A DNA stretch of 39,625 nucleotides from a virus. Lineage: Duplodnaviria > Caudoviricetes. The position numbers and the translations under genes are program-made. Numbering within the stretch: the first letter of the stretch is position 1; each line of letters begins with the position of its first letter. A model generated the notes under the pieces. It was given only the letters and a program-made list of their open reading frames with translations, did not search any database and was not told the DNA's origin. Location of the stretch: positions 1-39,625 of IMG/VR virus record IMGVR_UViG_3300033417_000029, one strand, 5' to 3'. This document shows positions 508-39,058 of the stretch, in pieces.

Positions 508-2202
508 ATGTATTGGTACCTTGATCGTGAAGAGCCTTCAGAAGTATTAAAACGTTTGTCGCGTTTGGAGGAGACGGGTGCTCTTTACAAGTTGAAAGAT
601 GAAGAGAAGATAGAGCTGGCAACGCACGTAATGAATTTGGAGTCGGCGTCTGGGAAGAATTTTTACCAGCCGAATGAGAAAGAGCGTAAATTTTTTTTGG
701 CACCTTTTAGGGTAAAGGGGATAAGCGGTGGAAATAGGAGTGGTAAGACGGCGACCTTGGTATTGGATGCAGTAATGCAGTTGGAGGGTTGGCATCCTTT
801 ACAGAAGGCGAATTTGCTATTTTTATCTGAGAATGCGAAAGCCGTCTGGGTGAGAGACGTTTGCAAACGAATATTGGATGATGGTTATTGGATAAAGTCA
901 CCGCCGGTTTATGGGAGAGTGATAACGGAAGATTACCCGAACTATGTGAATAAAGTGGTTGGTCCTGAGATACATAAGTGGGCAACGAGTACAGATGTAA
1001 AGAAGATTGGTTTTGACGTAGAGCGTGATCGTGTAGATTTGTGGAAGAATGGCTCGAAGCTGGAGTATCTGACTTACTCACAGCCGACGGAAGCGCACGC
1101 GGGTTCAGCCCGAGACTTTATCTATGCGGATGAAGAACCACCGCGTGATATCTGGATCGAATCGGGTATGCGAACGATATCGACAAATGGAAGGCGAACG
1201 ATAGGAATGACGGCTGTAAATGGGGTGACGTGGACGGAAGAAGATATTTGGCAGCCTGGCTTAAAGAAGCAAGGAGGAGTCTATGCTATTGAGATGACAA
1301 GTTATGACAACCCGATGAATTCCTCGGAGATAATCGATGAGATAAAGAGTCATTGTTTTGATGCGGTAGAAATAGCGATCCGGATTTATGGCAAGCGTCA
1401 GGCCAGGGGTGGATTGGTATTGAAGACATTTTCGGTGAAAGACATGATTGAGCCTTTTGAATTACCTGAATCATGTGATTTAATAGTGGCAATCGATCCG
1501 CACCCTGTAACCCCGCATGCGGTATTATTCGCGTGGGTAGATTACGATGGGTTGTATCATAGCATAATCGATGAAAAACCAAACATATATTTTGTGAGTG
1601 GTTTTTTTAAGACTGGTCATATACCTGGGTTAGTTTCCTTGATCAGGGAACGCGAGAAATTACTTGGTCGTTCTCACGACATATGCTTATGTGACCCTTC
1701 TGCGTGGAATGAAAATCAGAAAGACAGGTACGAAAAATCAGTTGCCGACCAACTACTGGAGGAAGATTTGGTTCCGCTGAAGGGTTCGAAGGACTTGAGC
1801 GGAGGCATATTGAAAATGAATGAGATGTTTGCGGTGGAGATGTCTTATGACGGCGAACAGACGAAAACGCGTGAGCACCCACAGGCTTTTATTTTTCAAG
1901 ATGAATTTGTTTTACAACCCAGACGCGATGATTCGATACAGCGGTTGAAATGGGAATTTTTAAATTGGCGGTGGCCAAATCCCAATCAGAATATGAATAT
2001 GGGCAATAGAATCAGACGGCCCATAGACAGAGATGATCATATGGCTGAGTGCGCGAGAAGGATATGCGAATTTGTTTACGACAGCAGAGTTGAGCCGTTG
2101 CCCATGGACCCAGATTGGATGACAAAAAAAGTCAGGCTTGGGAATGGTGCTGTCGTAGATTTCAGTAATGCAGTTACGAATGAACTGGAAGTTGGTTTGT
2201 AA
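508..2202 (+). CDS. terL: Terminase large subunit
   Basis: Walker A-like GGNRSGKT, Walker B FIYADEEP, coupling motif MT, nuclease motifs VAIDPH and DDHMAEC; 564 aa; precedes the portal. Confidence 0.93.
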   Translation: MYWYLDREEPSEVLKRLSRLEETGALYKLKDEEKIELATHVMNLESASGKNFYQPNEKERKFFLAPFRVKGISGGNRSGKTATLVLDAVMQLEGWHPLQKANLLFLSENAKAVWVRDVCKRILDDGYWIKSPPVYGRVITEDYPNYVNKVVGPEIHKWATSTDVKKIGFDVERDRVDLWKNGSKLEYLTYSQPTEAHAGSARDFIYADEEPPRDIWIESGMRTISTNGRRTIGMTAVNGVTWTEEDIWQPGLKKQGGVYAIEMTSYDNPMNSSEIIDEIKSHCFDAVEIAIRIYGKRQARGGLVLKTFSVKDMIEPFELPESCDLIVAIDPHPVTPHAVLFAWVDYDGLYHSIIDEKPNIYFVSGFFKTGHIPGLVSLIREREKLLGRSHDICLCDPSAWNENQKDRYEKSVADQLLEEDLVPLKGSKDLSGGILKMNEMFAVEMSYDGEQTKTREHPQAFIFQDEFVLQPRRDDSIQRLKWEFLNWRWPNPNQNMNMGNRIRRPIDRDDHMAECARRICEFVYDSRVEPLPMDPDWMTKKVRLGNGAVVDFSNAVTNELEVGL

Positions 2203-2384
2203 TGGAAATTTATCCATTTGTGTATATAATTTTCACATTGAGCCTATGCTTTGCAAGCTTAATCGTTGGTGTCAGGATCGGACAAAAGGCTGGGTCAGGC
2301 GGAATGGTGTCTATGCCAGACCCGGTAGAGTTGGAAGCAGAAGAAGAAGCAGATATAAACCCGGAGTGGGCTGGTGACAGGTAG
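2202..2384 (+). CDS. Small membrane protein
   Basis: TAATG overlap with terL; N-terminal hydrophobic helix and acidic tail. Confidence 0.6.
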   Translation: MEIYPFVYIIFTLSLCFASLIVGVRIGQKAGSGGMVSMPDPVELEAEEEADINPEWAGDR

Positions 2385-4272
2385 AAGAATAGACGAAGAT
2401 TCACAATCCGGATTAGCGATAGGCATGAAATATCTCGAGGCCGGGCTAGATGGATTAAAGTCTGAAAAGATCGTAGCTAACGCCCGCAAATTTGATCGTT
2501 ATTATCGCGGCATTCACGCCATTAGCCAGCGCAACGTTTTGCTGGGGAACAAGCCCTACAACCGGCTTGCCGAGGGAATAGATCAGCTTTTGGCCCGCAT
2601 GACGAATACGCATATAAAGTTTTATTTTCATCCCCAGGAAGATTTGGACAGCTTTAGTGCGCAGGCTCTGAATGAGATAATTGGGGATGTCGTCTGGGAT
2701 TATATCAAATGGGATGATAAAAGCGAAGATTCTATTCTGGAAGCGTTCGCAGTAGGAAGCAGCCACATACGTGGTGAAGTAGATGACAATTTTTACCCAA
2801 ACTTTAGTGTTTGGCCTGCCGGGTCAACGATCCCTGACCCAGATGCAAAGTCGAAAGAAGATTGTAACTTCATTATCTGGGTTTCTGAATCTACTCCTCG
2901 TACTGTAAAAGAAAATTATGGAATAAAATTAAGTGCTGGTGCTGGTGTTGATTATGAATCCGACCCGAACGAAGTGATGAAAAGCTGGGAAGATGCCGGC
3001 AGAAGCAAGGCACCAGTATTCTCAGAACTGGAAACTGATAGCAGACGTAGCCCACATTTCCCAAAAGTAATAGTTTATGAAATATGGATGGAAGACGAGC
3101 GTATGGTTCCCATTGCCTTCGATCAAACAGAAATAGACGATGAGCACGCCGCCATCGCCCAGTTGAAGGGTGCCGATGTTTTTGATCAACAGAACCATCC
3201 TCGCCATATCAAAGAGCATAGGCTTTTTATCGAGACTCTGGATCAGGAAACAGACACGGATTTAATTGCAGAGATAGAAGCCCACATTGAAGCGCACAAT
3301 CAATTCCCGCCTGACCTTAAACGTCGGAAATATCCTTATGGCAGAATAATTACAATAGCCGAAGGAAAGCTTCTTAGAGACGAACCCTTCCCCGAGGAAC
3401 GGCATTGGCGGAATATGTATGTCAAATGGGACTGGTTGAAACAACGAAATAAATATTGGGGCAAACCCGGGGCAACTGATGCCTACCCAATTCAGGATGA
3501 TATAAACTTCAGGAAAAATGCAATTACCCAGAACATCAACCTGCTTTTGAATGGAGTACGTAAAATCGGGCCGTCACTGCATAAAAAATTGTCTCAATTT
3601 ACTAATTTAATCGGTTTAAATGTACCGGTACAACGGCCTGATGATTTTACAGTGGATATGGGGAAGCCCTTGCCTTCTACACATCATATCGATTTGGCGC
3701 ATTCAGAACAAAGTCTCGACAGGATACTGAAAAGAACGGACGTTCTATCCGGGAACCTGCCTGCTGCGGGCACGGCAAATGTAACAATCGAGACATTGAT
3801 TGAGCAAGCTTCGGTTGCCGGGTCTACACCACTGAAGCATTACTCTCAGGCTTTGAAGGAAATGGCAAGAATTGCTATTTACCTGATGCAGAGATACATG
3901 CCGCAAGCAACTGTATTCGACATTATCAATAACGAAGAAAAAACAGGAAATGTGTCATGGGCTGGCTTTGCCGATAATGCGGGATTAAAAGATATCAGGA
4001 TTTCGGTAAAAGCCTTTAGATTTTCAAGAGAAAAAGATTTCCAGTTTGCTTTGCAAATGTATCAGGCTGGGCTGTATGATCGGCAGGCTGTATATGACAC
4101 CATCGATGACCCCAACAAATATGCCATAGCAAAGCGCATGGATGAAATCGATAGACTCTCACAAATAGTAGAAATTCAAAATGAAAAAATCGAAGACCTC
4201 ACGAAAGCAATCAATACCCAGGCGAACAGAACCCAGGGGCAAGATGGTGCTGGTAATACCGCCATCGCCTGA
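2374..4272 (+). CDS. Portal protein (P22-like podovirus type)
   Basis: 632 aa between TerL and scaffold; motifs KYPYGRIITIAEGKLLRDEP, YWG..A...IQDDIN and a helical C-terminus typical of portals. Confidence 0.85.
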   Translation: MTGRRIDEDSQSGLAIGMKYLEAGLDGLKSEKIVANARKFDRYYRGIHAISQRNVLLGNKPYNRLAEGIDQLLARMTNTHIKFYFHPQEDLDSFSAQALNEIIGDVVWDYIKWDDKSEDSILEAFAVGSSHIRGEVDDNFYPNFSVWPAGSTIPDPDAKSKEDCNFIIWVSESTPRTVKENYGIKLSAGAGVDYESDPNEVMKSWEDAGRSKAPVFSELETDSRRSPHFPKVIVYEIWMEDERMVPIAFDQTEIDDEHAAIAQLKGADVFDQQNHPRHIKEHRLFIETLDQETDTDLIAEIEAHIEAHNQFPPDLKRRKYPYGRIITIAEGKLLRDEPFPEERHWRNMYVKWDWLKQRNKYWGKPGATDAYPIQDDINFRKNAITQNINLLLNGVRKIGPSLHKKLSQFTNLIGLNVPVQRPDDFTVDMGKPLPSTHHIDLAHSEQSLDRILKRTDVLSGNLPAAGTANVTIETLIEQASVAGSTPLKHYSQALKEMARIAIYLMQRYMPQATVFDIINNEEKTGNVSWAGFADNAGLKDIRISVKAFRFSREKDFQFALQMYQAGLYDRQAVYDTIDDPNKYAIAKRMDEIDRLSQIVEIQNEKIEDLTKAINTQANRTQGQDGAGNTAIA

Positions 4273-4534
4273 CAAAGCAACTACTACAGTACCTGTTATT
4301 ACTGACGTAGCATTGAAAACCAATGCTACGGAAGCGTCTACTCCACAACCTGTGGTTTTACCTGAAGTCAATACCAGAACCTTTTTGCTCTGGGCTGCGA
4401 GATTACGTACAGGGCACCTTGGCATGGCCCCGGTTGTATTCGCCTTACAAATGGTGTCCAATTCAATACATGAAAATGGTCAACCTGTGTCTCAATCACG
4501 GGCACAGGAATTAATGAGTTCAGTTTTGAAATAA
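4181..4534 (+). CDS. Hypothetical protein, start uncertain, overlapping the portal 3' end
   Basis: ORF fills the portal-scaffold gap. Confidence 0.5.
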   Translation: MKKSKTSRKQSIPRRTEPRGKMVLVIPPSPDKATTTVPVITDVALKTNATEASTPQPVVLPEVNTRTFLLWAARLRTGHLGMAPVVFALQMVSNSIHENGQPVSQSRAQELMSSVLK

Positions 4535-23111: not shown

Positions 23112-23519
23112 TCAGATTTCCTTCACTATTTTTTGAAAATGTTCAAATGACCGGCAAAGTATCACCGGCACTTTATTTGCGAAATGCTTCTGTCCTTGAC
23201 TTTGTTTGCCTTTCTTTGTCTTGAGTTCGATACAGACAGCTTTACAAAAAAAACTGTCATGTTTTTTTAGAAGTATTAAATCAGGCAAACCTTTCAGGTA
23301 TTTCGATATCAGCTTTTTGATATGTGCTGATACAAAGTTGTTTGCAAAGATCGCCCTGTAAACTGCATCAGGAATCCGGATGACGGCAATGTCAGGGAAA
23401 TACTGAAGGTATTCCTCGCATCGATCCTGCAGTGCCTTCTCATTTGCGTTGATGGATTTGAACTCTTCCGCTGTAATCGTCTTGTTGCCGGTCTGTTTGG
23501 ACTTTGGGTATGCTGGCAT
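23112..23519 (-). CDS. VRR-NUC family nuclease (putative junction resolvase)
   Basis: EKALQ..C..YL, KGLPDLI, IELKT..GK.S..Q motifs; likely start MPAYP at 23519. Confidence 0.8.
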   Translation of the reverse strand: MPAYPKSKQTGNKTITAEEFKSINANEKALQDRCEEYLQYFPDIAVIRIPDAVYRAIFANNFVSAHIKKLISKYLKGLPDLILLKKHDSFFCKAVCIELKTKKGKQSQGQKHFANKVPVILCRSFEHFQKIVKEI

Positions 23520-24229: not shown

Positions 24230-24481
24230 TTATCCTTGCCAATCAGGCAAACCTTTCAGGTATTTCGATATCAGCTTTTTGATATGTGCTGATACAAAGT
24301 TGTTTGCAAAGATCGATTTTTCTTTTGCAATTGCCAGTTCTATGCAGGTTTTTGCACAGAATTCAACCAAATCTTTCTTCGTCCACTTCATCATCTCGGC
24401 CTTCCATTCTGGGCCGCACGGTTCATAAGACTCTTCGATCATTTGGTTTTTCTCCTTCTCTTTTTGTTGGTTCTCATTCAT
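24230..24481 (-). CDS. Hypothetical protein whose C-terminus is copied from the VRR-NUC gene
   Basis: ATGA overlap start; ends IFANNFVSAHIKKLISKYLKGLPD-WQG. Confidence 0.55.
   Translation of the reverse strand: MNENQQKEKEKNQMIEESYEPCGPEWKAEMMKWTKKDLVEFCAKTCIELAIAKEKSIFANNFVSAHIKKLISKYLKGLPDWQG
24241..24315. repeat. Exact 75-bp direct repeat of 23279-23353
   Basis: Direct sequence comparison; offset 962 bp. Confidence 0.92.
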
Positions 24482-25015: not shown

Positions 25016-25555
25016 TCATTTCAGAGACGTGAGAAGGACATAATATTCAGCGACCGCTTTTAATTGCTCTTTGTCTTTAATTTCAAACTCCCAGTTATCT
25101 TTTGACACCTCTTTTTCAATGACATCTATAACAAAAGTTTTCGGCTCGAATGGGAATGCTTTTATGAATTGTCGGCTTTTAATTCCCTCTTTTGTTGTGC
25201 CGTGACAAGTTGTGCCTTCTTGCGTTTTCCAAGAAATTGCGTCCAAATAGTGTGCTTTGCCGTCTTCCTTGAAAACTGCCGAGCAACGATTATTTTGTAA
25301 TACTCCATTTGATACTTCATTCCATTCGCTATCTTCACCCGTAAGAGGAGCAATCGGCTGTTGAAGACATAATTCTTTTACTGCGTCTGCTAACGCTGCT
25401 GCCGTATAAGGGGCTGAAAAGCCAGACTGTCCTGAATTGCCAAACGCATCACATAAAGCAAGTATCTCTGGAACAAAATGTCGAATAATAGCGTCTGGCG
25501 TTGTCTTGATAAGAATATCTAATTCCTTTTTTGCGTGTGATTGTGTGTTTGTCAT
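25016..25555 (-). CDS. Conserved hypothetical phage protein
   Basis: F..SGQSGFSA.Y, PIAPLTGEDSEW and QN.RCS.VFK motifs, which I recall from many phage hypothetical proteins. Confidence 0.7.
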   Translation of the reverse strand: MTNTQSHAKKELDILIKTTPDAIIRHFVPEILALCDAFGNSGQSGFSAPYTAAALADAVKELCLQQPIAPLTGEDSEWNEVSNGVLQNNRCSAVFKEDGKAHYLDAISWKTQEGTTCHGTTKEGIKSRQFIKAFPFEPKTFVIDVIEKEVSKDNWEFEIKDKEQLKAVAEYYVLLTSLK

Positions 25556-26203: not shown

Positions 26204-27331
26204 TCATGGTTTCTTCGTTCCTTGCTGCGCGCGTTCCATCTGATTGAGAACCCACAAAATTTCAACCCGAAGTGGCGCGCTTATAATTTGACTGAATGGT
26301 TTCGTCTCTGCATTATGAGACTTCAGCCATGTTCGAAGCTGGAAACCATTGACGGTTTTCATGTATGCGTCATACAGTTTCATCTGCGCTTCGACGGGAT
26401 GCTCAAGCCATTCGTCAAAAAACTCATCTTTCGGCGAAGGCCCGGACTCCATATTTGCGATTTCCGGGCCTTTCTCTTTATCGGTGATGGTCTCGGTAGG
26501 CCCGGCGGCGGTTTCTTCTTTAGGGATTTGCTGGTGCCCTGTAGTCTTGTCTGGTTGGCCGATTGGTTTTGGGTCTTTTATTGGGTCTTTTATTGGGTCT
26601 GGCTCGATGGTTTCATAGTCGGTGAAATCAATCTGTCCGCCTTCTTCGAATGCAGCGTCGGCTTCTGGGCTTTTAAATTCAAGTTGAATCATTTTTCGCA
26701 GGCGCCTTATTACTGCTTTTTTTGCCATCTCTCCAGGATATAATTTCCAGGCTGGCCCAGTAGGAGTCTTTGACGCTTGCTTAATCAGTTCTATGTCATT
26801 GATTCCCATTGACTCATATATCATCGTACCGTCTTTGTAAAGACAGACGGCAAATACTCCAGCGATGAGTTCTTCGTTAAATGGTTGTGGTTTAAAGGTT
26901 ATCGATTGATGACCGTCAATAATGGATTCGTGGAAAATATCACCCTTCCGCACAATTTTCGCATAAATATCGGCGATGGGGTTGATACTGTACATTTTGG
27001 CGAGCTTGATCTCGCCCTTGTAATCCGTCTGAAATTGGATTTTCTTTACCCATTGAGGCTTTTCTTTCGTCCCTACGTTTTCATTGTATGGGATAGCGTA
27101 ACATTCCTTGTTGAAGAAATCAAGGCCGAGAAAAGCGCCTTGCAGCATCGTTCTGGTTACACTCGCAGGATCAATGGTTTCGATTCCCCTCGTATCGGCC
27201 AGAACTGTCATTGCGTTTTGCAGGAATCTTGTTTCGTTAAAGTTCGTGGGCAATGCTTTTTGTTTTGATTGCAATAATGATTTCAAGTTGTTGTGGATAG
27301 TTACAAGCTGAGTGTTCTGTTTTTGTGTCAT
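26204..27331 (-). CDS. recT: RecT/Red-beta single-strand annealing recombinase
   Basis: LGL....ECYAIPY, QFQTDYKG.IKLA and W..YPGEMAKKAVIRRL.K motifs; low-complexity linker with DPIK repeats. Confidence 0.92.
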   Translation of the reverse strand: MTQKQNTQLVTIHNNLKSLLQSKQKALPTNFNETRFLQNAMTVLADTRGIETIDPASVTRTMLQGAFLGLDFFNKECYAIPYNENVGTKEKPQWVKKIQFQTDYKGEIKLAKMYSINPIADIYAKIVRKGDIFHESIIDGHQSITFKPQPFNEELIAGVFAVCLYKDGTMIYESMGINDIELIKQASKTPTGPAWKLYPGEMAKKAVIRRLRKMIQLEFKSPEADAAFEEGGQIDFTDYETIEPDPIKDPIKDPKPIGQPDKTTGHQQIPKEETAAGPTETITDKEKGPEIANMESGPSPKDEFFDEWLEHPVEAQMKLYDAYMKTVNGFQLRTWLKSHNAETKPFSQIISAPLRVEILWVLNQMERAQQGTKKP

Positions 27332-28014: not shown

Positions 28015-28223
28015 TCGTTTTTCTCCTTGTCTCTTTCAAGGCGGTTTGCTTCATCACGCAACTCTTGCGCAGGATGATCAAGCCAGCCATTATAAATGTC
28101 TTTCCCGTCAATGCGGATGTGTATGCCATCATCCTCTGATGTGTACCGGAGATCAACATTGTACTTTTCATACACATCTGCAAGAGCGCGAAGTGCTTCT
28201 ATTCTAAATTTACGTTTTGTCAT
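28011..28223 (-). CDS. Hypothetical protein
   Basis: Overlaps both neighbours. Confidence 0.55.
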   Translation of the reverse strand: MTKRKFRIEALRALADVYEKYNVDLRYTSEDDGIHIRIDGKDIYNGWLDHPAQELRDEANRLERDKEKNE

Positions 28224-28815
28224 AATGTAAGGTTTTGAAATTTGCTATCGTCAGACACGCAAGGAAAAGCCTCTGTGCCTGCTTTATGTTTTTGTACCAT
28301 TTTAGCGAATACGTGCCGTTATCCCCCAAAACGATAGCGCAAGCTTTTTTGATTTTACTATTGTATTTTTCTTCCCAAAGCAGGGAATAGCCGCCGAGTT
28401 GAATCTCGACATATGGCTCCAATGATGATTTGATATCACCAAGTATGAGATGATCATTATGCAAGATCAGATCAATGGTTCCGGCAAACTGGTATCTCTT
28501 GGAATGCAACATCAACTCTGAGTGCATCACCTCATAACCGGTTTCGGAGATAAACTTCACGAAAGCTTTCAGTTTACCTAAAATCCTTACATCTACTGTG
28601 CCCCAATCTAACACGCCTTCCAGGAGGTAATGGATAGCCTTATGTACGGCTGTTCCTTTCCCAGCATGCCATTCGGTCCAATAAAATCTTTCTCCAACAT
28701 GCCATTCGGTCAATCTTTCTCCAAAATTGGCTTGGATGGCCTGCGTCACGCTGGGAAGGCGTCTTGTGCCGAGACGATAGATATGGTTTTCATCAATGTT
28801 AATGTTATCATTCAT
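28210..28815 (-). CDS. PD-(D/E)XK exonuclease (RecB/Cas4-like fold)
   Basis: LPSVT, GTAVH, FAGTIDL, DIKS and QLGGY motifs; near recT. Confidence 0.85.
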   Translation of the reverse strand: MNDNINIDENHIYRLGTRRLPSVTQAIQANFGERLTEWHVGERFYWTEWHAGKGTAVHKAIHYLLEGVLDWGTVDVRILGKLKAFVKFISETGYEVMHSELMLHSKRYQFAGTIDLILHNDHLILGDIKSSLEPYVEIQLGGYSLLWEEKYNSKIKKACAIVLGDNGTYSLKWYKNIKQAQRLFLACLTIANFKTLHYDKT

Positions 28816-31533: not shown

Positions 31534-31928
31534 AACTTGCGATTGAGAACCTGCATCATGACATGACAATCGAAAGAATTAGTGAACTCCTGGACTCCAT
31601 GATGTTGCATGGCAACAATAGCGCCGAAGAAAAATTGTACTGGTTGTTATCGGAGTTGCAAAAGGCTGTCGACACCTGCGACGACATCCGGAAAACTTTA
31701 GCCTACAAAGGCTACAAGGGTTACTACCAATTTGATTCTGAATTTAAAATTTATTATGGAGAAGTCGTCGATATCATGGACATTATCACCTTTCAAGCGA
31801 CATATTCAGAAGAAATGGAGAAAGCTTTCCGGGACTCTGTTGATGATTACTTGGCTTTCCGGCTCACTGGTCGATTGCGAACCGCCGAAGAAAGAAAAAA
31901 GACCTTTATCGAATCAGGACGGTGTTGA
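31530..31928 (+). CDS. Protein containing a HicB antitoxin-like domain
   Basis: YKGY.G...FD.E..I.YG.V..I.DIITFQA....E.EKAFRDSVDDYL matches the HicB N-terminal domain consensus. Confidence 0.75.
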   Translation: MKLAIENLHHDMTIERISELLDSMMLHGNNSAEEKLYWLLSELQKAVDTCDDIRKTLAYKGYKGYYQFDSEFKIYYGEVVDIMDIITFQATYSEEMEKAFRDSVDDYLAFRLTGRLRTAEERKKTFIESGRC

Positions 31929-31959
31929 CGTGTGTGGGTGCCCGATCACGAAAAACACG

Positions 31960-32191
31960 GGCACGGTATCGCATCGAGTCGGTTGCAAAAAATCCGACCA
32001 AGCCGCGGCTGATTCGAGTGCAGGATTGTAACCCGGTGATTGATCCCACTGGCCCTTATGGAGGCAAGTACCGCGTGATTCGCGGCGGCAGTTGGCACTT
32101 CGACGCCCGCAGCGTGCGCGCTGCCTACCGCGGCAGGAGCTGGCCTGGCTACCGCATCGGCTATTTGGGTTTTCGTTGCGCCCTATTATAA
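31960..32191 (+). pseudogene. Fragment of an FGE-sulfatase/C-type-lectin domain with a DGR-type variable region
   Basis: VQDC..DPTGP..GKYRVIRGGSW...VRAAYR....GYLGFRCA; no intact N-terminal domain. Confidence 0.75.
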
Positions 32192-32430: not shown

Positions 32431-32547
32431 TTTTATGCCTAAATGTTATGGCTGATGTGACGCATAAGACCAATCAAGATGTGACACATACCTCAGATGC
32501 GTCGTATGAGACCAATCAGAAACAAAACAAGAGCATGGAGTCATTTA

Positions 32548-33480
32548 ATGAGTGAAAAACTAAAGAGAGCATTCAAAGGGATATGGATACCGGCAAGACT
32601 TTATCTTGAAAAAGAATTGTCATGGACTGAAAAAATACTATTGATTGAAATAGACAGTCTGTCTACTGATAAACGGGGATGTTTTGCTTCAAACGCTCAT
32701 TTTGCCGAATTTATTGGCATTAAAGAAATGCCAGTGAAAAATATGTTAACGAGCCTTAAAAAAAGAGGATATATTGAATATTCGACGGCTGGAGGATGCA
32801 GGGGGGACATAAGGATAATTCAAGAAAAGTCGGCACAAAAATGTGCTGACTCGGCACAAAAATGTGCTGACTCGGCACAAAAATGTGCTGAGAATGGCAA
32901 ATTGCTTACGCTCAACGCAGGCAATAGCGAATTTCCCCCTAATAATACACTTAATAATACATTTAATAAATACAAAGAAGATCCGTCATTTCCAGAAAAC
33001 GGAAATGCCTTACACACAGCGAAAGATGAAAACAATCAGAAACAAAACAAGAGCATGGAGGGGAAAAAGGAAGAACATTTTTTTCCCTTAAAAGTAAAAA
33101 TCCCCCCCGAAAAGCGTTCCGCCGCGGCCCCCCCTTTACTGCAGAAAACAGAAATACATGAAACATTTAATGCGATCGAGCAAAAACTCCAAACCGGTAA
33201 GACGGCAAAAAGACCACTGTTCAGGTCAGAAAAGCGCCTTAAGGGCTTAGCGCGTGTGCTGAAGGAGTTCAAAAGTAATGGGCTATCGGCGGTTGATTTG
33301 TTGGCAGCGCTTGATAAGATGATGGCGAATGCGTGGCTGATGGGAGAGAATCCGGGAGGAGTCGTTTATTTGACTTTTGATTTTTTTGTGCGGCCTGGTA
33401 AGGCTGTTGAGTGGTTCGAGCGTGAAGATGGTAAGCAACAGAGTAAACAAAACGACTTTGTCCCACCTTATTTGAGATAG
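32548..33480 (+). CDS. Replication initiator (lambda O-like, N-terminal HTH)
   Basis: FKGIWIP..L, EKILL.EI.SL, GCFASNAHFAEF and LKKRGYI motifs; internal iterons; C-terminal TFDFF..P; upstream of dnaB. Confidence 0.85.
   Translation: MSEKLKRAFKGIWIPARLYLEKELSWTEKILLIEIDSLSTDKRGCFASNAHFAEFIGIKEMPVKNMLTSLKKRGYIEYSTAGGCRGDIRIIQEKSAQKCADSAQKCADSAQKCAENGKLLTLNAGNSEFPPNNTLNNTFNKYKEDPSFPENGNALHTAKDENNQKQNKSMEGKKEEHFFPLKVKIPPEKRSAAAPPLLQKTEIHETFNAIEQKLQTGKTAKRPLFRSEKRLKGLARVLKEFKSNGLSAVDLLAALDKMMANAWLMGENPGGVVYLTFDFFVRPGKAVEWFEREDGKQQSKQNDFVPPYLR
32830..32891. repeat. Three 21-bp iterons, the likely replication origin
   Basis: TCGGCACAAAAATGTGCTGA(C) x3, each with a GCACA-AAAA-TGTGC dyad; AT-rich TAATACA repeats follow at about 32940-32972. 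Confidence 0.8.
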
Positions 33481-33485
33481 AAAAA

Positions 33486-34811
33486 ATGGATTTAGATATT
33501 GATAGAAAACCGGCACGAGATGAACAACGAGAGCGACAGGTGCTTAGTTATTTATTGCAAGGCAAGCACAACCCGGCGTGGATTTTTGATAGACTTGGAG
33601 TATCTGATTTCTATCTGAAAAAAAACAGAATTCTTTTCGAGCATTGTTTTCGGGCTTATCAACAAAATCGAAATTTCTGTTTAATTGATGTTTATCAGAG
33701 CCTAAAAATGGCTGATTTGACTGTAGAAATCCCGTGGGGTTTTTTGGGACAATTGGAACCAGAGTGTTTTACTCCCAGCAATATTCTCGAATCAGTTGGG
33801 ATTTTGATCGATGCTTCTCAACTCAGAGAAGTAAATCGATTGGTGATTGAAATAGGGAATCGTAGTTATGATCCGTGTGAAAAAGCTACGACTTTACTGA
33901 ATGAGATGAAGGATCGATGTACAGATATTCTTGCCAGGCAGAGTTTTGACAGTTTTGAACATATTGCTAAAGTTCAAGATCGTGAAAATGGGATTATGTT
34001 GAAGGCTGCCGAACTGAAGGAAGTGCCGGGATTAGGCACGGGATTCAGGAAGCTCAATGAGTTTGTTATGTTTTCGCCTGGAGACTTGGTAATTTTGGCT
34101 GGTCGCCCGTCGATGGGGAAATCCGGATTTGCGAAAGCTATAGCAAGGAATATCGCCATCTCTGGGGTAGCAGTAGGTATTTTCTCGCTTGAGGATAGCT
34201 CAGGAGCTTTTTACCGGCGTTTGCTTGCTGACGAAGCAGAAATTAGAGCGAGTAAGTTACGCGATCCAAGATTGTTGAATTCAGAAGATTGGAGTAAAGT
34301 CGTTGAGCGTCAAGAAAAGATAAAAGATTTACCTATCTGGATTGACGACCGTCCGAAGGCAAGTCTGCGTTCTATCATTGCAAAGGCGGAGTCAGTAAAG
34401 GCTGAGCATGATATTAAGCTGTTTATAATTGATTATTTAGGCTTGGTGAAATCAGATAAACGAAAAGAAAATCGTAATGCGGAGGTTACACACATTTGCG
34501 GTGAATTGAAAGACTTGGCAAAGTTTTTAGAAATTCCAGTGCTGGTTCTTAGCCAGCTCAACCGTGAGTGTGAATCAAGGACGAATAAACGACCGATGCT
34601 TTCAGATTTACGCGAATCCGGTTCGATAGAACAGGATGCGGACACCGTGCTTTTCATTTATCGTGATTCATTTTATCATCAAGATGCTGATAAAACTGAA
34701 GTCGAGATAATTGTTGCGAAGCAGCGAAATGGTCCTATTGGGCGAGTTTTGTTGAAATATTATGAAGAATATCAACAGTTTAGAGACAAAGAAGATATCC
34801 CTATTTTCTGA
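33486..34811 (+). CDS. dnaB: Replicative DNA helicase
   Basis: AGRPSMGKS, FSLE, IIDYLGL, LSQLNR, DLRESGSIEQDAD and KQRNGP motifs. Confidence 0.96.
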   Translation: MDLDIDRKPARDEQRERQVLSYLLQGKHNPAWIFDRLGVSDFYLKKNRILFEHCFRAYQQNRNFCLIDVYQSLKMADLTVEIPWGFLGQLEPECFTPSNILESVGILIDASQLREVNRLVIEIGNRSYDPCEKATTLLNEMKDRCTDILARQSFDSFEHIAKVQDRENGIMLKAAELKEVPGLGTGFRKLNEFVMFSPGDLVILAGRPSMGKSGFAKAIARNIAISGVAVGIFSLEDSSGAFYRRLLADEAEIRASKLRDPRLLNSEDWSKVVERQEKIKDLPIWIDDRPKASLRSIIAKAESVKAEHDIKLFIIDYLGLVKSDKRKENRNAEVTHICGELKDLAKFLEIPVLVLSQLNRECESRTNKRPMLSDLRESGSIEQDADTVLFIYRDSFYHQDADKTEVEIIVAKQRNGPIGRVLLKYYEEYQQFRDKEDIPIF

Positions 34812-34866
34812 CAACTGTTCAGAAAAATTGAACAGTTGAACGCGTAAAATAAAAAGGAGTAAAGAA

Positions 34867-35019
34867 ATGAAAATGAGAAAAAGAGATGGGTATTTTATTG
34901 AAAACGGACTTCAAGCAGATTTTAGATTCATTCGCAAACATGAAGTAGAAGATCGATCGCTTGTCGAAACAGCGGCTGGTGAAATCTGGGTGGAGACGAG
35001 TATTCTCAGATATGATTGA
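34867..35019 (+). CDS. 50-aa hypothetical protein (absent from the ORF track)
   Basis: AAGGAG RBS; MKMRKRDGYF...ILRYD*. Confidence 0.5.
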   Translation: MKMRKRDGYFIENGLQADFRFIRKHEVEDRSLVETAAGEIWVETSILRYD

Positions 35020-35038
35020 CGCGGTAGAGATAAAGTGA

Positions 35039-35063
35039 GCCCGGCAGCACCTTGCCACCGGGC
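35039..35063 (-). repeat. Cassette hairpin copy 1
   Basis: Sense strand GCCCGGTGGCA-AGG-TGCTGCCGGGC then TCAC. Confidence 0.9.
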
Positions 35064-35072
35064 CGGGGGGGG

Positions 35073-35630
35073 TTAATCCCTGACACAGCGAACCGAAAAG
35101 CCGTGCTGCTTATAGTCGTCGTAGCGTCTGGCTCCTGAAGTATCGTAACCCAAGGCGTGGTACCACGCGTAGCCACGATCGTACTCCGTAGAAGACCAAA
35201 AGTGGGCGTTGGTACCGATGCTGTCGAACCTACCATTGTCGTTGCGGTAACCACCAGGCAACGCAGAAAAGCCGCTTTCGTTGGTGGCGCCGGTGTTTGG
35301 GCTATTCCAATGTACTGTTTCTTTCAGCTTGCCGCTGGCAACATTATCGCCACCAAGGTAATCAATCAATGTTTGCCACTCGGCATTACTGGGTATATGC
35401 CAGCCTTCTGGCGCCAGACCACGTGGGTCGGTTACAGCAAACCAGTTGTAAAGATACCCGTAAGTCCCGGCGCTGGTTAGATCATTCCCATAACTGCAGT
35501 AGGCGCCGCTGCTTAGATTCGCCCAGGCATTTTCGCCGGTAACACCGGCTATAGCATCGCCATTGCGATATCGCGTCACCTTCAGATTCTCAGCCATCCA
35601 CCATTGCTTACCAATTTTTATTTTGTTCAT
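35073..35630 (-). CDS. Stand-alone Fibrobacter succinogenes major paralogous domain (FISUMP, CLec fold) protein
   Basis: IG.Q.WMAENL, YGYLYNW.AV, LAPEGWHIPS..EW, GFSALPGG.R, FWSST and GFSVRCVRD motifs. Confidence 0.93.
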   Translation of the reverse strand: MNKIKIGKQWWMAENLKVTRYRNGDAIAGVTGENAWANLSSGAYCSYGNDLTSAGTYGYLYNWFAVTDPRGLAPEGWHIPSNAEWQTLIDYLGGDNVASGKLKETVHWNSPNTGATNESGFSALPGGYRNDNGRFDSIGTNAHFWSSTEYDRGYAWYHALGYDTSGARRYDDYKQHGFSVRCVRD

Positions 35631-35691
35631 GTTTTTCTCCTTGCCCCTTTCGGGGCAGTAAAGTTAGCCCGGCAACACTCTGTCGCCGGGC
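35631..35691 (-). repeat. Cassette hairpin copy 2 plus GAAA-tetraloop/RBS leader
   Basis: GCCCGGCGACA-GAG-TGTTGCCGGGC-TAACTTTACT-GCCCC-GAAA-GGGGC-AAGGAGAAAAAC-ATG. Confidence 0.92.
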
Positions 35692-35694
35692 GAA

Positions 35695-36387
35695 TCAGTC
35701 GTGCGCGGATAGGGAGGAAGCAAGAATTTTTGCATAGGGATGTTTAATCGCATCCAGGTTCTTTTGTGCAAAGTGATCGTTCCACAAATCTTCTGCTGGA
35801 ATATTCAGCAGGTTTATTGCTGCTTGATATTCAGCAATTGGGACGATTTTCGCGAAATCGTCCCATAGGTTTTCTGTGTTTGCAGGATATACAATCCTGG
35901 AGTGGATTTGTTTATCGGTACGCAATGCTTTATACAAGAAAAAAAGCATTGCGTTAATATTAAGCAGTGGTAATGGAATGTTTATTTGTTGATTTTGGCC
36001 ATTTTTTATAATGGCCAAATCATAGTATAGCTCACTATCCTGGAACTCGAGATTTTCAAATCTATCTGTTTCGACAAAAAACCTTGTATCTGCCGGAGGA
36101 CTTGATAAAATCGCCGCGAAGGCGACATTGGCGAGTTCAAAATCTCCAGCATTTTTTGCTTTGTTTGCTAAAAGAAGCAGCGGTTGGAGGTGTACACCTC
36201 TACCAAATTCTGGCATTTTGCCAAAATTGACCTCAAATGTAACTTCAGGCCAATTTTGGATCAAATTTGTGATCCATTCTTCAGCATATTTGAAGCTGAA
36301 TAAATGGATCACCGGAGTACTAATTTTTTCGAAATTAACAGCAATGTCGCCATCGCTGTCTTTGTAAATATAAATTTTTGTTTTCAT
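35695..36387 (-). CDS. Hypothetical protein (cassette cargo)
   Basis: 230 aa, AT-rich, bounded by near-identical leaders. Confidence 0.8.
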   Translation of the reverse strand: MKTKIYIYKDSDGDIAVNFEKISTPVIHLFSFKYAEEWITNLIQNWPEVTFEVNFGKMPEFGRGVHLQPLLLLANKAKNAGDFELANVAFAAILSSPPADTRFFVETDRFENLEFQDSELYYDLAIIKNGQNQQINIPLPLLNINAMLFFLYKALRTDKQIHSRIVYPANTENLWDDFAKIVPIAEYQAAINLLNIPAEDLWNDHFAQKNLDAIKHPYAKILASSLSAHD

Positions 36388-36449
36388 GTTTTTCTCCTTT
36401 GCCCCTTTCGGGGCGGTAAGGTTAGCCCGGCAACACTCTGTCGCCGGGC
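36388..36449 (-). repeat. Cassette hairpin copy 3 plus leader
   Basis: Near-identical to 35631-35691. Confidence 0.92.
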
Positions 36450-36459
36450 TGGTGGGAGT

Positions 36460-36711
36460 TTAATAAAATTGCTGCCTTGTTACAGTGTCTAGTGCGTATT
36501 CTTCTGCTTCAGCGCAGAGCGTACGCCCTGCGCGCAAGCAGGCTATTTTGTAAGCCTGCTGAGCAACTCGTCTGGCGCGATCCTGCTGGCTTAGCCAGTT
36601 CCAGTTATCAGGATCAGAATCAGACGGCAGGTTTAAATTTGCTTCTGATTGTGCGCGTTTCAGTGCGGGCTCAAGTGCCCGCTCAATTGCTAATTTTTCA
36701 TGTAATTTCAT
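36460..36711 (-). CDS. Hypothetical protein (cassette cargo)
   Basis: 83 aa, between hairpin copies 4 and 3. Confidence 0.7.
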   Translation of the reverse strand: MKLHEKLAIERALEPALKRAQSEANLNLPSDSDPDNWNWLSQQDRARRVAQQAYKIACLRAGRTLCAEAEEYALDTVTRQQFY

Positions 36712-36739
36712 GTAATTTCTTTTCTCTTTGGTTAGATTA

Positions 36740-36763
36740 GCCCGGCGGCAAGTGTCGCCGGGC
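36740..36763 (-). repeat. Cassette hairpin copy 4
   Basis: GCCCGGCGACACTTGCCGCCGGGC then TAATCTAAC. Confidence 0.88.
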
Positions 36764-36771
36764 TGGCCGAC

Positions 36772-37134
36772 CTATAGGTATACTTCTATCATATCCGCTA
36801 ACTGCTCAAATGTATATTTATAAGAATCATTTGCTTTTACTACATTAGAATTTTTTCCTGGAAAAGTTCCTACAGAGTCTATACCTGACCATTTTTGTAC
36901 TTCTTCTGGAAGAGTTCCCATAATGCGTTTGCAAGATCTAGTGGTCGAAATAGTATCACCGGAAGCGATGCTTCCGCAGTCCCATTTTAATTCGCCTATT
37001 TTATTTTTTATCGCTATGTCACATAGAACACCTAAAGGGCAAAATCCTTTGTCTGCCTTGAGACGACCATATGCTTGTACATATTCGCCTGATCTTAGAG
37101 CATCAAGCCATAGTTTTTTCACTTCACTGTTCAT
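36772..37134 (-). CDS. Conserved small phage protein
   Basis: W..ALRSG.Y.Q..G.L...FC.LGVLC...ND...TF..LAD.IE pattern; AAGGA RBS before the ATG at 37134. Confidence 0.8.
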   Translation of the reverse strand: MNSEVKKLWLDALRSGEYVQAYGRLKADKGFCPLGVLCDIAIKNKIGELKWDCGSIASGDTISTTRSCKRIMGTLPEEVQKWSGIDSVGTFPGKNSNVVKANDSYKYTFEQLADMIEVYL

Positions 37135-37309
37135 TTGTATTTCCTTTCTCGTAAAAGAAAGGACTATACGGACCGGGATGCAATTCGACTCGGATGCATT
37201 TCCCGAGTTCAAATTTTGCCGATACAACTGGCTTTGTGATCCCGTGTTTGTTTTTGAATGCGGCCACAAGTGTCCATTCTTTTGTTGTCATTTCTTCGAC
37301 TTTGGTCAT
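37124..37309 (-). CDS. Small protein, paralogue B
   Basis: GAGGTG RBS; MTKVEEMTTKEWTLVAAFKNKHGITKPV. Confidence 0.7.
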   Translation of the reverse strand: MTKVEEMTTKEWTLVAAFKNKHGITKPVVSAKFELGKCIRVELHPGPYSPFFYEKGNTNEQ

Positions 37310-37369
37310 TGTTTCACCTCGTGTTAGGCATTTGTTCACCGATACGACCGGCTTTGTGATCCCGTGTTA

Positions 37370-37395
37370 GCCCGGGCAGCACCTTGCCGCCGGGC
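37370..37395 (-). repeat. Cassette hairpin copy 5
   Basis: GCCCGGCGGCA-AGG-TGCTGCCCGGGC then TAAC. Confidence 0.88.
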
Positions 37396-37407
37396 CTGGG
37401 GATGGGA

Positions 37408-37584
37408 TTAACTGTTAAATGTAAATGGATTTGGTAGAACCAAAACTTCCGCTACCTGGAAACGCCATTCCTGGGCGTTCCAGATAAAATTTGCCGCGCC
37501 AACGGGATTTGTAATCTCATGCTCGAGTTTGAACTTGTTAACCAATTCAAATTCATCCTTTGTCATTTCTGCAATATTTTTCAT
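37408..37584 (-). CDS. 58-aa protein, paralogue A (absent from the ORF track)
   Basis: GAGGTG RBS; MKNIAEMTKDEFELVNKFKLEHEITNPV..., aligns with 37124-37309. Confidence 0.72.
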   Translation of the reverse strand: MKNIAEMTKDEFELVNKFKLEHEITNPVGAANFIWNAQEWRFQVAEVLVLPNPFTFNS

Positions 37585-37633
37585 TTTTCACCTCGTATTT
37601 TAAAGTTAGGCTCCTTATCGTTTCGACAAGCAC

Positions 37634-37662
37634 AAGATACACATTGTCAAGTGTTTTTGCAA
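37634..37662 (-). promoter_or_regulatory. Leftward array promoter
   Basis: TTGCAA-N17-TATCTT with a TGTG extension. Confidence 0.65.
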
Positions 37663-37774
37663 TTCTTTTTTGCGATTTTTATTTTAAAAGTTTTTTTGAT
37701 AGCATAAAGCATTATAAAACAACGATTTAAGACTTATAGTTGAAATAAAGTTGAAAAAAGAATTGAAAAAACAC

Positions 37775-37803
37775 TTGACAATAAAGATAACAATGTGTAT
37801 CTT
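37775..37803 (+). promoter_or_regulatory. Rightward array promoter, near consensus
   Basis: A-tract UP element, TTGACA-N17-TATCTT with a TGTG extension. Confidence 0.85.
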
Positions 37804-37825
37804 GTGCTTGTCAAAACGAAAATAA

Positions 37826-37864
37826 GCTAACAATAACTGCCCTGAAAGGGGCAAGGAGAAAACA
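37826..37864 (+). repeat. Cassette leader without the large hairpin
   Basis: GCTAACAATAACT-GCCCT-GAAA-GGGGC-AAGGAGAAAACA-ATG. Confidence 0.8.
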
Positions 37865-38227
37865 ATGAAAAATTTACAACAGCGTGCGCTCGAGGCTGCG
37901 CTCGAGAAATACGAGTTGGCCGGGCTGAATAAGAGAGATACGTGGATCGAGAGCCACGGAAGCCGCAGGTTGCAAATAGCCGCGGCAAACCTGCGGCTGG
38001 ACTACGAAGCAGAGCGAGCAGCCTCGGAGCTGCCTGATTTTTTCTTTGATTGGGATGGCTCGATCGAGCTCAGGCCCGGTTTCGAGCCATCCCTGAAGAA
38101 CAAAGAGCTGTTGGATTTGTACAGCTCCTTTAATCCGGAGCTGTACAGAGACAGCTCCGGAAACTATATTATCAGAGTTGTTCCAGGTTGGCTCAGATCG
38201 GGAACAACGTTGTTGATGTACGCTTAA
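37865..38227 (+). CDS. Hypothetical protein (cassette cargo)
   Basis: Strong RBS; 120 aa. Confidence 0.8.
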   Translation: MKNLQQRALEAALEKYELAGLNKRDTWIESHGSRRLQIAAANLRLDYEAERAASELPDFFFDWDGSIELRPGFEPSLKNKELLDLYSSFNPELYRDSSGNYIIRVVPGWLRSGTTLLMYA

Positions 38228-38240
38228 ACAATTTTCAGCA

Positions 38241-38289
38241 GGCCCGGCGACAGAGTGCTGCCGGGCCAACCTTTACAAGGAGAAAAGTA
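38241..38289 (+). repeat. Cassette hairpin copy 6 plus RBS
   Basis: GGCCCGGCGACA-GAG-TGCTGCCGGGCC-AACCTTTAC-AAGGAGAAAAGTA-ATG. Confidence 0.9.
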
Positions 38290-38577
38290 ATGAAAAAATC
38301 AATCACAGCAGCTGTCTTGGCTAAAATTCGTGGTACAATTTTACACCACGAAAAATTCTCAAAATCTTATTTTTGGCGCCCCCCACTGTCTGCAGCAGAA
38401 CGACGCAGGATGGAAGACAAAAATTCATTTCAAGTTGAATTTCAACTGGACGGTGATTCGTACATATACGACTCAAGCGTTAGATGTTCGTGCAGGCGTG
38501 TCCGTTACACAGGGAGTTTCAGAAAAAACTCTGTCCCTGGAACGGTTCGGCTATTCAAAAGTTTACTGGAAAATTAG
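38290..38577 (+). CDS. Hypothetical protein (cassette cargo)
   Basis: AAGGAG RBS; MKKSITAAV...SYFWRPP.SA..RR. Confidence 0.75.
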   Translation: MKKSITAAVLAKIRGTILHHEKFSKSYFWRPPLSAAERRRMEDKNSFQVEFQLDGDSYIYDSSVRCSCRRVRYTGSFRKNSVPGTVRLFKSLLEN

Positions 38578-38585
38578 CTTACTCA

Positions 38586-38620
38586 GGCCCGGACAACAAG
38601 GATGTTGCCGGGCCTTTTTT
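38586..38620 (+). terminator. Cassette hairpin copy 7 acting as a terminator
   Basis: GGCCCGG(A)CAACA-AGGA-TGTTGCCGGGCC followed by T6. Confidence 0.8.
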
Positions 38621-38691
38621 ATTCCCACCCCTATTTATCTACCCAAAAAAATCTCATTGTTTAATACTTCAAAAAATAGTATTTTAGGGGC

Positions 38692-38877
38692 ATGTCTAAG
38701 CCTAAAAATACATACATTGAGACGAATGAAGTAAACCAAGATGGTGCCGCCTTACCTAGGCTCGTGCACACCGATGCTCTTATTTACCATGCCCTTCAGG
38801 ATACGATTGAAAAAATAGAAGTAGTACAGGAAATGTTTAACATTCATCATCATATTGCCTGTAACCCGCATGGATAA
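38692..38877 (+). CDS. Hypothetical protein
   Basis: 61-aa ORF with an AGGGG RBS-like sequence. Confidence 0.4.
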   Translation: MSKPKNTYIETNEVNQDGAALPRLVHTDALIYHALQDTIEKIEVVQEMFNIHHHIACNPHG

Positions 38878-39058
38878 CGCAGTCGTAAATTACGCAAACG
38901 CTATTATTTTACATCTTTCTCAACTACAACAAGACATAGCTGCTATAAGAGTTATCACCTTCCGCACTCTACAACTCCTACAAGCCAAACAAGTACGCGC
39001 TTCCCAAATCCGCGCAATCGCGGAGCGCTGGGGCGTCACACTCCAAAGAGAAAAATAG
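38870..39058 (+). CDS. Hypothetical protein
   Basis: Overlaps the previous ORF; helical composition. Confidence 0.45.
   Translation: MDNAVVNYANAIILHLSQLQQDIAAIRVITFRTLQLLQAKQVRASQIRAIAERWGVTLQREK

Follow-up and report, generated by a model that had tools for sequence, protein, structure and literature searches.

A repeated hairpin and CYAAC leader in the small-gene array of a metagenomic tailed phage: a probable RNA element that may double as homology for gene exchange

Introduction

The closest described relatives of the locus analysed here are the promoter-early stem-loop (PeSL) cassettes of T4-type phages (Arbiol 2010, PMC2839356; Comeau 2014, PMC4122927). As far as the parts of these papers considered here describe them, PeSLs are repeated GC-rich stem-loop units that fill the space between a stop codon and the next ribosome site, the neighbouring genes being small and of unknown function, and genes are gained, lost and swapped at the unit without a dedicated recombinase. 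We analysed a stretch of 39,625 nucleotides (nt) of tailed phage DNA, IMG/VR record IMGVR_UViG_3300033417_000029 (Duplodnaviria; Caudoviricetes), hereafter called the window, in which seven copies of a GC-rich hairpin, coupled to leaders with a CYAAC core, punctuate two divergent arms of small genes. The repeat resembles PeSLs in its stem-loop, its placement and the lack of a dedicated recombinase, and gene change at a near-identical unit was found in a second group of phage contigs (family D, see below). Unlike in PeSLs, the internal units of the window have no promoter and two shared candidate promoters would drive two divergent arms, the internal tails have no U-tract, the genome is that of a 40-kb RecT phage and not of a T4-type myovirus, and mini-circles were not seen in contigs. 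Because no promoter lies within the unit, as it does in PeSLs, the window array is not classed as PeSL here. The principle is already published, since PeSL cassettes work alike. A literature search that covered few subscription papers returned the PeSL studies but no description of this hairpin.

Two further systems are comparable in part. Cluster K mycobacteriophages carry repeated leaders, the start-associated sequences (SAS), some of which follow an inverted repeat whose spacer varies (extended SAS, ESAS), and no function is given for them in the sections of that paper used here (Pope 2011, PMC3203893). ESAS have 17-bp arms, occur genome-wide and are tied to a gene family, unlike the repeats of the window, whose 11-bp arms hug the upstream stop codon within one block. 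Linker-mediated modular exchange by Rad52-like recombinases has been described as requiring only short, diverged homology, with a minimum exact segment of 23-27 bp for Red-beta (De Paepe 2014, PMC3945230). The window likewise encodes RecT and an exonuclease; only one pair of window copies reaches 23-27 bp, and repeated hairpin joints are not treated in the sections of that paper considered.

Results and Discussion

As read from the sequence, the repeat is most likely an RNA element that would be able to serve as exchange homology. On balance we favour an interpretation as a terminator-derived RNA hairpin with a CYAAC leader, which would be read through and would double as short homology for gene exchange, that is, a promoterless PeSL-like variant. 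All seven hairpin copies lie inside the divergent small-gene block, five with genes on the minus strand (left arm) and two with genes on the plus strand (right arm). Outward from the candidate divergent promoters the order is leader, gene, stop codon, a spacer of 3-14 nt, an 11-bp GC-rich hairpin, a YAAC tail and the next leader. Copies 1 to 5 are located at 35039..35063, 35667..35691, 36425..36449, 36740..36763 and 37370..37395 (all -) with tails TCACTTTA, TAACTTTAC, TAACCTTAC, TAATCTAAC and TAAC, copy 1 standing at the end of the left arm. Copy 6 is located at 38242..38266 (+, tail CAACCTTTAC), and copy 7 with its U-run at 38587..38621 (+, hairpin 38587-38613). The hairpin pattern had no match in 100 shuffles of the sequence, a loose pattern matched the seven array copies only, genome-wide, and a still looser one added a single weaker site inside recT. 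An earlier note on this DNA, made from the letters alone, had described seven copies that punctuate the array, each within about 15 nt after a stop codon, and both statements hold (the spacing is 9, 3, 10, 8, 12, 14 and 9 nt for copies 1-7). The five left-arm starts were placed correctly in that note, the two right-arm starts 1 nt too low (38241 and 38586), and its consensus GCCCGGYRRCA-N3-TGYYGCCGGGC fits four of the seven copies exactly but not copy 4, with its 2-nt loop, nor the bulged copies 5 (1 nt) and 7.

As had also been noticed, a true U-run follows copy 7 alone; this copy separates the right arm from the terS-terL-portal operon and is predicted to be an intrinsic terminator. Together with copy 1, flagged as terminator-like, this favours a simpler explanation, namely that the hairpins are ordinary terminators or attenuators, locally duplicated, which grade expression along the arms and have no special role in exchange. 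We consider this unlikely, since a U-tract is absent from all five internal copies, whose conserved YAAC tail recurs in the promoter-proximal leaders; further evidence on both sides is given below. Under the favoured interpretation the U-tract of a terminator would have been replaced by the leader core, and RNA polymerase would mostly pass the internal copies or be partly attenuated there, read-through being suggested by the missing U-tracts. The stable 3' hairpin would protect the RNA of each gene from exonucleases, and copy 7 would terminate transcription ahead of the packaging genes.

The second part of the unit is the leader. A CYAAC core was found at most 45 nt upstream of seven of the eight array genes, including both first genes, and of none of 30 other genes; with automatic start calls the counts are 7/8 and 1/39, one of the eight then being a spurious opposite-strand open reading frame (ORF) that replaces gene L1. 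Because CYAAC stands in both promoter-proximal leaders, a point that the earlier note had missed, the repeat unit is best described as hairpin plus leader, the core of which also occurs without the hairpin. On the left side the CTAAC core (37605..37609, -) has no large hairpin before it. On the right side a CTAAC core with a GAAA-loop hairpin (37827..37852, +) has 19 exact nt in common with the leader after copy 2. Two more GAAA-loop hairpins are located immediately 5' of the ribosome site of gene L6 (35643..35656, -) and 5' of that of gene L5 (36401..36414, -). Three such hairpins had been counted earlier, and rightly so, but a large hairpin precedes only two of them; the third comes after the right promoter. 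The A/C-rich CYAAC stretch, in three leaders together with the small GAAA hairpin, would keep the ribosome site open for whatever gene follows.

The two arms, which are likely early operons, diverge from a control region at 37610..37827 with a 62-nt inverted repeat (37610-37671 / 37766-37827, 79%) and two candidate promoters that share the -10 hexamer TATCTT. The right one, TTGACA-17-TATCTT (37775..37803, +), scored 10/12 in a promoter scan; the left one, TTGCAA-17-TATCTT (37634..37662, -), reaches 8/12, below the bar of the scan, and was read by eye. What distinguishes the two arms of this region (37610-37827) is a 12-nt segment between ACAAT repeats, so that the TTGACA hexamer is correctly spaced on the right arm only. 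Between 34500 and 39625 the scan, which does not cover non-sigma-70 promoters, returned 7 promoter-like sites against 8.5 expected by chance, none of them in an internal unit firing into the next gene.

The GAAA-loop hairpins bear on a lambda-like antitermination mechanism. Lambda nut sites combine boxA and boxB and are served by the arginine-rich N protein, and a GCCC-GAAA-GGGC hairpin after a promoter resembles boxB. The GAAA hairpins might accordingly be boxB-like sites through which a small phage protein enables polymerase to transcribe across the hairpins, copy 7 included, and it would fit that one of them lies just after the right promoter with terS-terL downstream on the same strand. 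However, the two others are located far into the left arm and the left promoter lacks one, a boxA was not detected by eye, and no N-like protein was matched among the array genes in PDB or PHROG, searches which short peptides escape; antitermination is in our view very improbable. Another mechanism is known from T7, where hairpins between early genes are RNase III sites and the enzyme cuts the early RNA into single-gene pieces. By analogy, an endonuclease could cut at the hairpin foot and release single-gene RNAs that would all bear a 3' hairpin, three of them also a 5' GAAA hairpin. The layout of hairpin, short single-stranded A/U/C tail and second hairpin before the ribosome site is as expected for such processing, and the tail is conserved in sequence. 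In contrast to the T7 sites, the GC-rich stems have only 11 bp and are short for RNase III, and the core also occurs close to the predicted start of each operon, at about 20 nt, where cutting would release nothing, which makes processing clearly improbable. Rfam yielded five sub-threshold matches, none on a hairpin copy, and no family at gathering score.

An RNA role is also suggested by base pairing. In 14 copies (seven from the window and seven from other phages) the loop varies but the 11-pair stem is preserved, and at 2 of the 11 pairs both sides have changed. Within the window the sense strand carries 6 G-U pairs against 2 A-C mismatches. The earlier note had argued from G-U pairs for a sense-strand structure, which is right for copies 1, 2, 3 and 5, whereas copy 4, with an A-C mismatch on the sense strand, shows the opposite and copy 6 is mixed. 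Beyond the window, a tail-free stem pattern occurs at 74 viral loci (60-61 distinct sites) against 8 for the reversed pattern, a single control to be read with the own biases of terminator stems in mind. Across the 40 of 60 distinct sites where gene direction could be called, the sense strand has 31 G-U against 3 A-C pairs, which points to an RNA role of the stem. The tails of these sites range between T-runs and A/C-rich leaders, and the T-runs on many unrelated phage copies again favour ordinary terminators. A set of prophages (family E: L130, L133, L147, L152, L154, L155, L163, L179 and L185) carries two or three tandem paralogues, varying in number and length and divided by the stem and a T-run; these hairpins were taken to be terminators. 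In a further phage family (L143/L144, L135/L148 and L171), a 75-nt unit, whole or reduced to its hairpin part, occurs eight times within 15 kb, with the same stem, a T-run and a ribosome site; between two common genes, L143 has four unit-bounded intervals and L171 one. Viral contig L056 contains several GCCCGG hairpins (1107-4412), at least two of them followed by leader-like sequence. It is conceivable, if quite improbable, that the hairpin with its YAAC/TCAC foot (CCCGG-YRRCA...TGYYG-CCGGG) is a protein-recognised, sequence-specific joint shared by unrelated phages of 44% to 64% GC, which would form an integrase-free, integron-like pool of early genes across lineages.

Evidence for gene change at such a unit comes from family D, six related viral contigs that share DNA (L129, L156, L167, L175, L190 and L192) and belong to a phage unrelated to that of the window. 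Their unit is identical to copy 1 at 26 of 29 nt and agrees with it at 8 of the 9 positions that the search pattern does not fix; the two units may be homologous or convergent. The order F6-hairpin-F1-hairpin-F12 of L190 reads F6-hairpin-F12 in L175, the hairpin after F1 is followed by five different sequences within the family, and F14 is preceded by F1 in L167 and by F7 in L190. Breakpoints, taken as alignment ends, were found at 11 of 11 hairpin gene junctions versus 13 of the remaining 28 junctions (Fisher p 0.002, with counts that are not independent), and 18 of 116 alignment ends fall at hairpins where 3.07 would be expected by length. This clustering at a near-identical unit argues against plain terminators. 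Judging by loop and flank types, L175 crossed over within the 3' arm and L192 within the 5' arm; since crossovers fall in either arm there appears to be no fixed cut site, and homology fits better. RecT is encoded in L175 and a Sak4-like protein in L167. All five family D records searched have a tyrosine recombinase between two hairpin clusters. The two scanned matched generic Xer-type models only, below cut-offs, and did not match the integron-integrase-specific model, and in L190 excisionase-like genes flank the recombinase, which we therefore read as an ordinary integration module.

The earlier note had proposed a modular array with the repeat as homology for exchange. Gene change at the near-identical hairpin in the six family D contigs supports this, the exchange step being seen there only, by alignment of contigs; for the window phage an RNA role and mobility are proposed. 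As the same 25-60 nt sits between the genes, single genes would be gained, lost or exchanged with expression signals intact, through RecT-type annealing or through slippage of replication at the palindrome. A small number of sites within the window point to past rearrangement. Gene L1 is a paralogue of L2 (48% over 33 amino acids (aa), E 2e-8), and a 30-nt copy of L2 coding DNA (37219-37248, 93%) is found at 37339..37368 (-), in the leader directly after copy 5, where it starts at an AAC core and is likely the scar of a duplication. Copy 6 combines a 5' flank of the type of copies 5 and 7 with a loop of the type of copies 2 and 3, and flank, loop and tail types in general sort differently among the window copies.

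Start of the scar at the AAC core is also what a site-specific cassette system would predict, in which a host or helper recombinase cuts a single-stranded DNA hairpin at the YAAC core, as in attC or repetitive extragenic palindromic (REP) sequences, and the promoter leaders are hairpin-less entry sites. Integron attC arrays and clusters of attC sites lacking integron-integrases (CALINs) have one gene per unit, a stop codon near the palindrome and a shared upstream promoter, and the succession of promoter, core, gene, hairpin and core in the window resembles such attI/attC arrays. The enrichment of the stem (74 versus 8) also fits, and deletions of T4 at GGGC/GCCC motifs are cited in the PeSL literature as far as considered here (PMC2839356). 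However, profile searches of the window found none of four relevant families, namely tyrosine recombinase/integrase (PF00589, 0/1, with a positive control of 14/14), HUH transposase (PF01797), reverse transcriptase (PF00078) and resolvase (PF00239), which agrees with the earlier statement that RecT is present and an integrase is not. The attC consensus has RYYYAAC before and GTTRRRY after the palindrome. The motif order in the window is not that of attC, as already recognised: YAAC comes after the hairpin, which has no GTT partner on either side, so that an upstream partner for the attC R box is missing. The unit is shorter, no integron integrase is encoded, the family D crossovers are not fixed, and the family D recombinases scanned do not match the integron-integrase model. 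REP elements likewise stand shortly after stop codons, with a GTAG tag and a Y1 HUH transposase (REP-associated tyrosine transposase, RAYT), whereas the antisense foot of the window hairpins reads GTTAG, GTTGG or GTGAG and PF01797 is absent. No host genome with many tailed copies was found either, the exact tailed pattern giving three single matches in genome contigs. We regard a site-specific system as the least probable of the explanations considered. A diversity-generating retroelement was also rejected, as PF00078 is absent and no long repeat of the 3' end of L6 is among the listed repeat families.

Searches of viral, metagenome and genome collections turned up no close relative of the window phage. 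In viral contigs the exact tailed hairpin pattern gave no locus, the loose tailed pattern at least 119 loci, nearly all single matches (47 of 64 parts), and the leader pattern two single matches; a metagenome pattern scan gave six loci, three from the window's own record and three single ones, two of these inside a gene. Copy 1 had 23 partial matches in cultured phages, which is chance level. For the capsid protein, viral contigs contained no relative and a protein search gave a single one at 50%, and RecT gave 70 loci, all at 58% or below and with no array gene in common. The stretch from 34.8 to 38.8 kb is present, whole or in part, in 13 metagenome runs from sediment or soil, with at least half its words in seven. 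Run X9 contains a related strain with 5 differences in 151 nt of gene R1. At 38249, within the 5' arm of copy 6, one X9 contig departs from the window and continues with 132 letters that fit nowhere in 34700-39000. Thirty letters of this loose end start with GCAAT, as a continued arm would, include a GAAA-loop hairpin and end with ATTG; they have no match in viral contigs. The contig may represent R1, a variant hairpin and then different downstream cargo.

Several observations weigh against the interpretation that we favour. Copy 1 ends the left arm and retains its TCACTTTA tail with no following gene, a feature overlooked earlier; it has the same weak tail as the internal copies, hence such tails may terminate. 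Whole-unit folding energy favours the sense strand in three of seven copies only, with one tie and three copies favouring antisense, which makes the strand argument weak inside the window. Of the 116 alignment ends in family D, 98 are not at hairpins, and an alignment is by its construction prone to stop at a repeat. A long exact stretch (29 nt) is common to copies 2 and 3 only, every other pair having 19 nt or less; as this pair alone exceeds 23-27 bp, present-day exchange may be limited to it or need relaxed pairing. Contigs of 8 of the 13 runs contained no excision joint, no indel and no mini-circle, contigs being apt to drop rare forms, and this, like the shortness of most exact matches (below 20 nt), favours plain terminators. 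The X9 contig is single, less than 90% alike and aligned over about 50 nt (an estimate from bin depths). Finally, L3 has relatives in three cultured phages without such a hairpin in the flanks inspected.

The array genes give few indications of function. Pfam, PHROGs, PADLOC, PDB and Atlas identified only a Fib_succ_major (FISUMP) domain in L6 (185 aa, 35073..35630, -; PF09603, E 9e-50; TIGR02145) and phrog_18067 for L3 (120 aa, 36772..37134, -). L3 overlaps the L2 stop codon and has no CYAAC leader; its relatives, at 30-39%, are in unrelated cultured phages of Synechococcus, Ralstonia, Bradyrhizobium and Alteromonas. L5 (230 aa, 35695..36387, -) belongs to no family and has no homologue beyond its own cluster, and L4 (83 aa, 36460..36711, -) has no family and no PDB match at E 10. 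L2 (61 aa, 37124..37309, -) is the paralogue of L1 (58 aa, 37408..37584, -), the first gene of the left arm. On the right arm, R1 (120 aa, 37865..38227, +) shows weak likeness to the C-terminal part only of unnamed proteins of 285-307 aa (E about 1e-4) and is possibly a truncated or grafted gene; R2 (95 aa, 38290..38577, +) has no homologue and two weak, unrelated PDB matches only. The first 14 residues of R1 resemble those of L4 (7/14, not significant). PHROG had no match for L1, L2, L4, R1 and R2, and a cluster look-up of 10 proteins returned clusters of 1-4 members, the fellow members inspected being fragments or one-residue variants. The cargo had been called mostly unrelated small genes, which needs correction for the paralogues L1 and L2 and for the hairpin-bounded interval that holds two genes (L2 and L3). 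A role of the cargo in host takeover or anti-defence, also proposed earlier, is a guess from position and found no support: PADLOC, which models defence systems, matched none of nine proteins (the eight array genes and the ORF after copy 7), and the sole recognisable anti-defence gene, a Tad3-like anti-Thoeris gene (25016-25555, -; PF25185, E 1.8e-26, over cut-off), is found 10 kb away from the array.

The window represents the complete or almost complete genome of a tailed phage (terminal overlap of 203 nt, completeness rated 95%) and encodes terminase, a P22-like portal, capsid, RecT, exonuclease and DnaB. The RecT-family annealing protein (26204..27331, -) is a candidate trans-acting recombinase which we infer to be linked to the hairpin array, and the exonuclease (28210..28815, -) lies in the recT operon. 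The L6-side end of the left arm, at copy 1, is the convergence point with the dnaB operon. A gene for a helix-turn-helix replication initiator contains three tandem, iteron-like 21-nt repeats (32830-32892), near a 35-nt repeat at 32506 and 33026. A short ORF (31922-32191, +) matches the C-terminal part only of the FGE-sulfatase domain (E 6e-6), and an exact 75-nt duplicate is found at 23279-23353 and 24241-24315, 962 nt apart.

Conclusions

The value of the finding is moderate, because the principle is published, the RNA role is one that we infer and the cargo has no known function. Accessory genes of phages turn over fast, and how a new gene arrives with working signals is an old question, addressed by the linker model of modular evolution. 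A promoterless joint of hairpin and leader that recurs in unrelated phages would extend the PeSL idea beyond T4-type phages, and searches with the hairpin sequence may help to locate hotspots of accessory genes in phages that have not been cultured.

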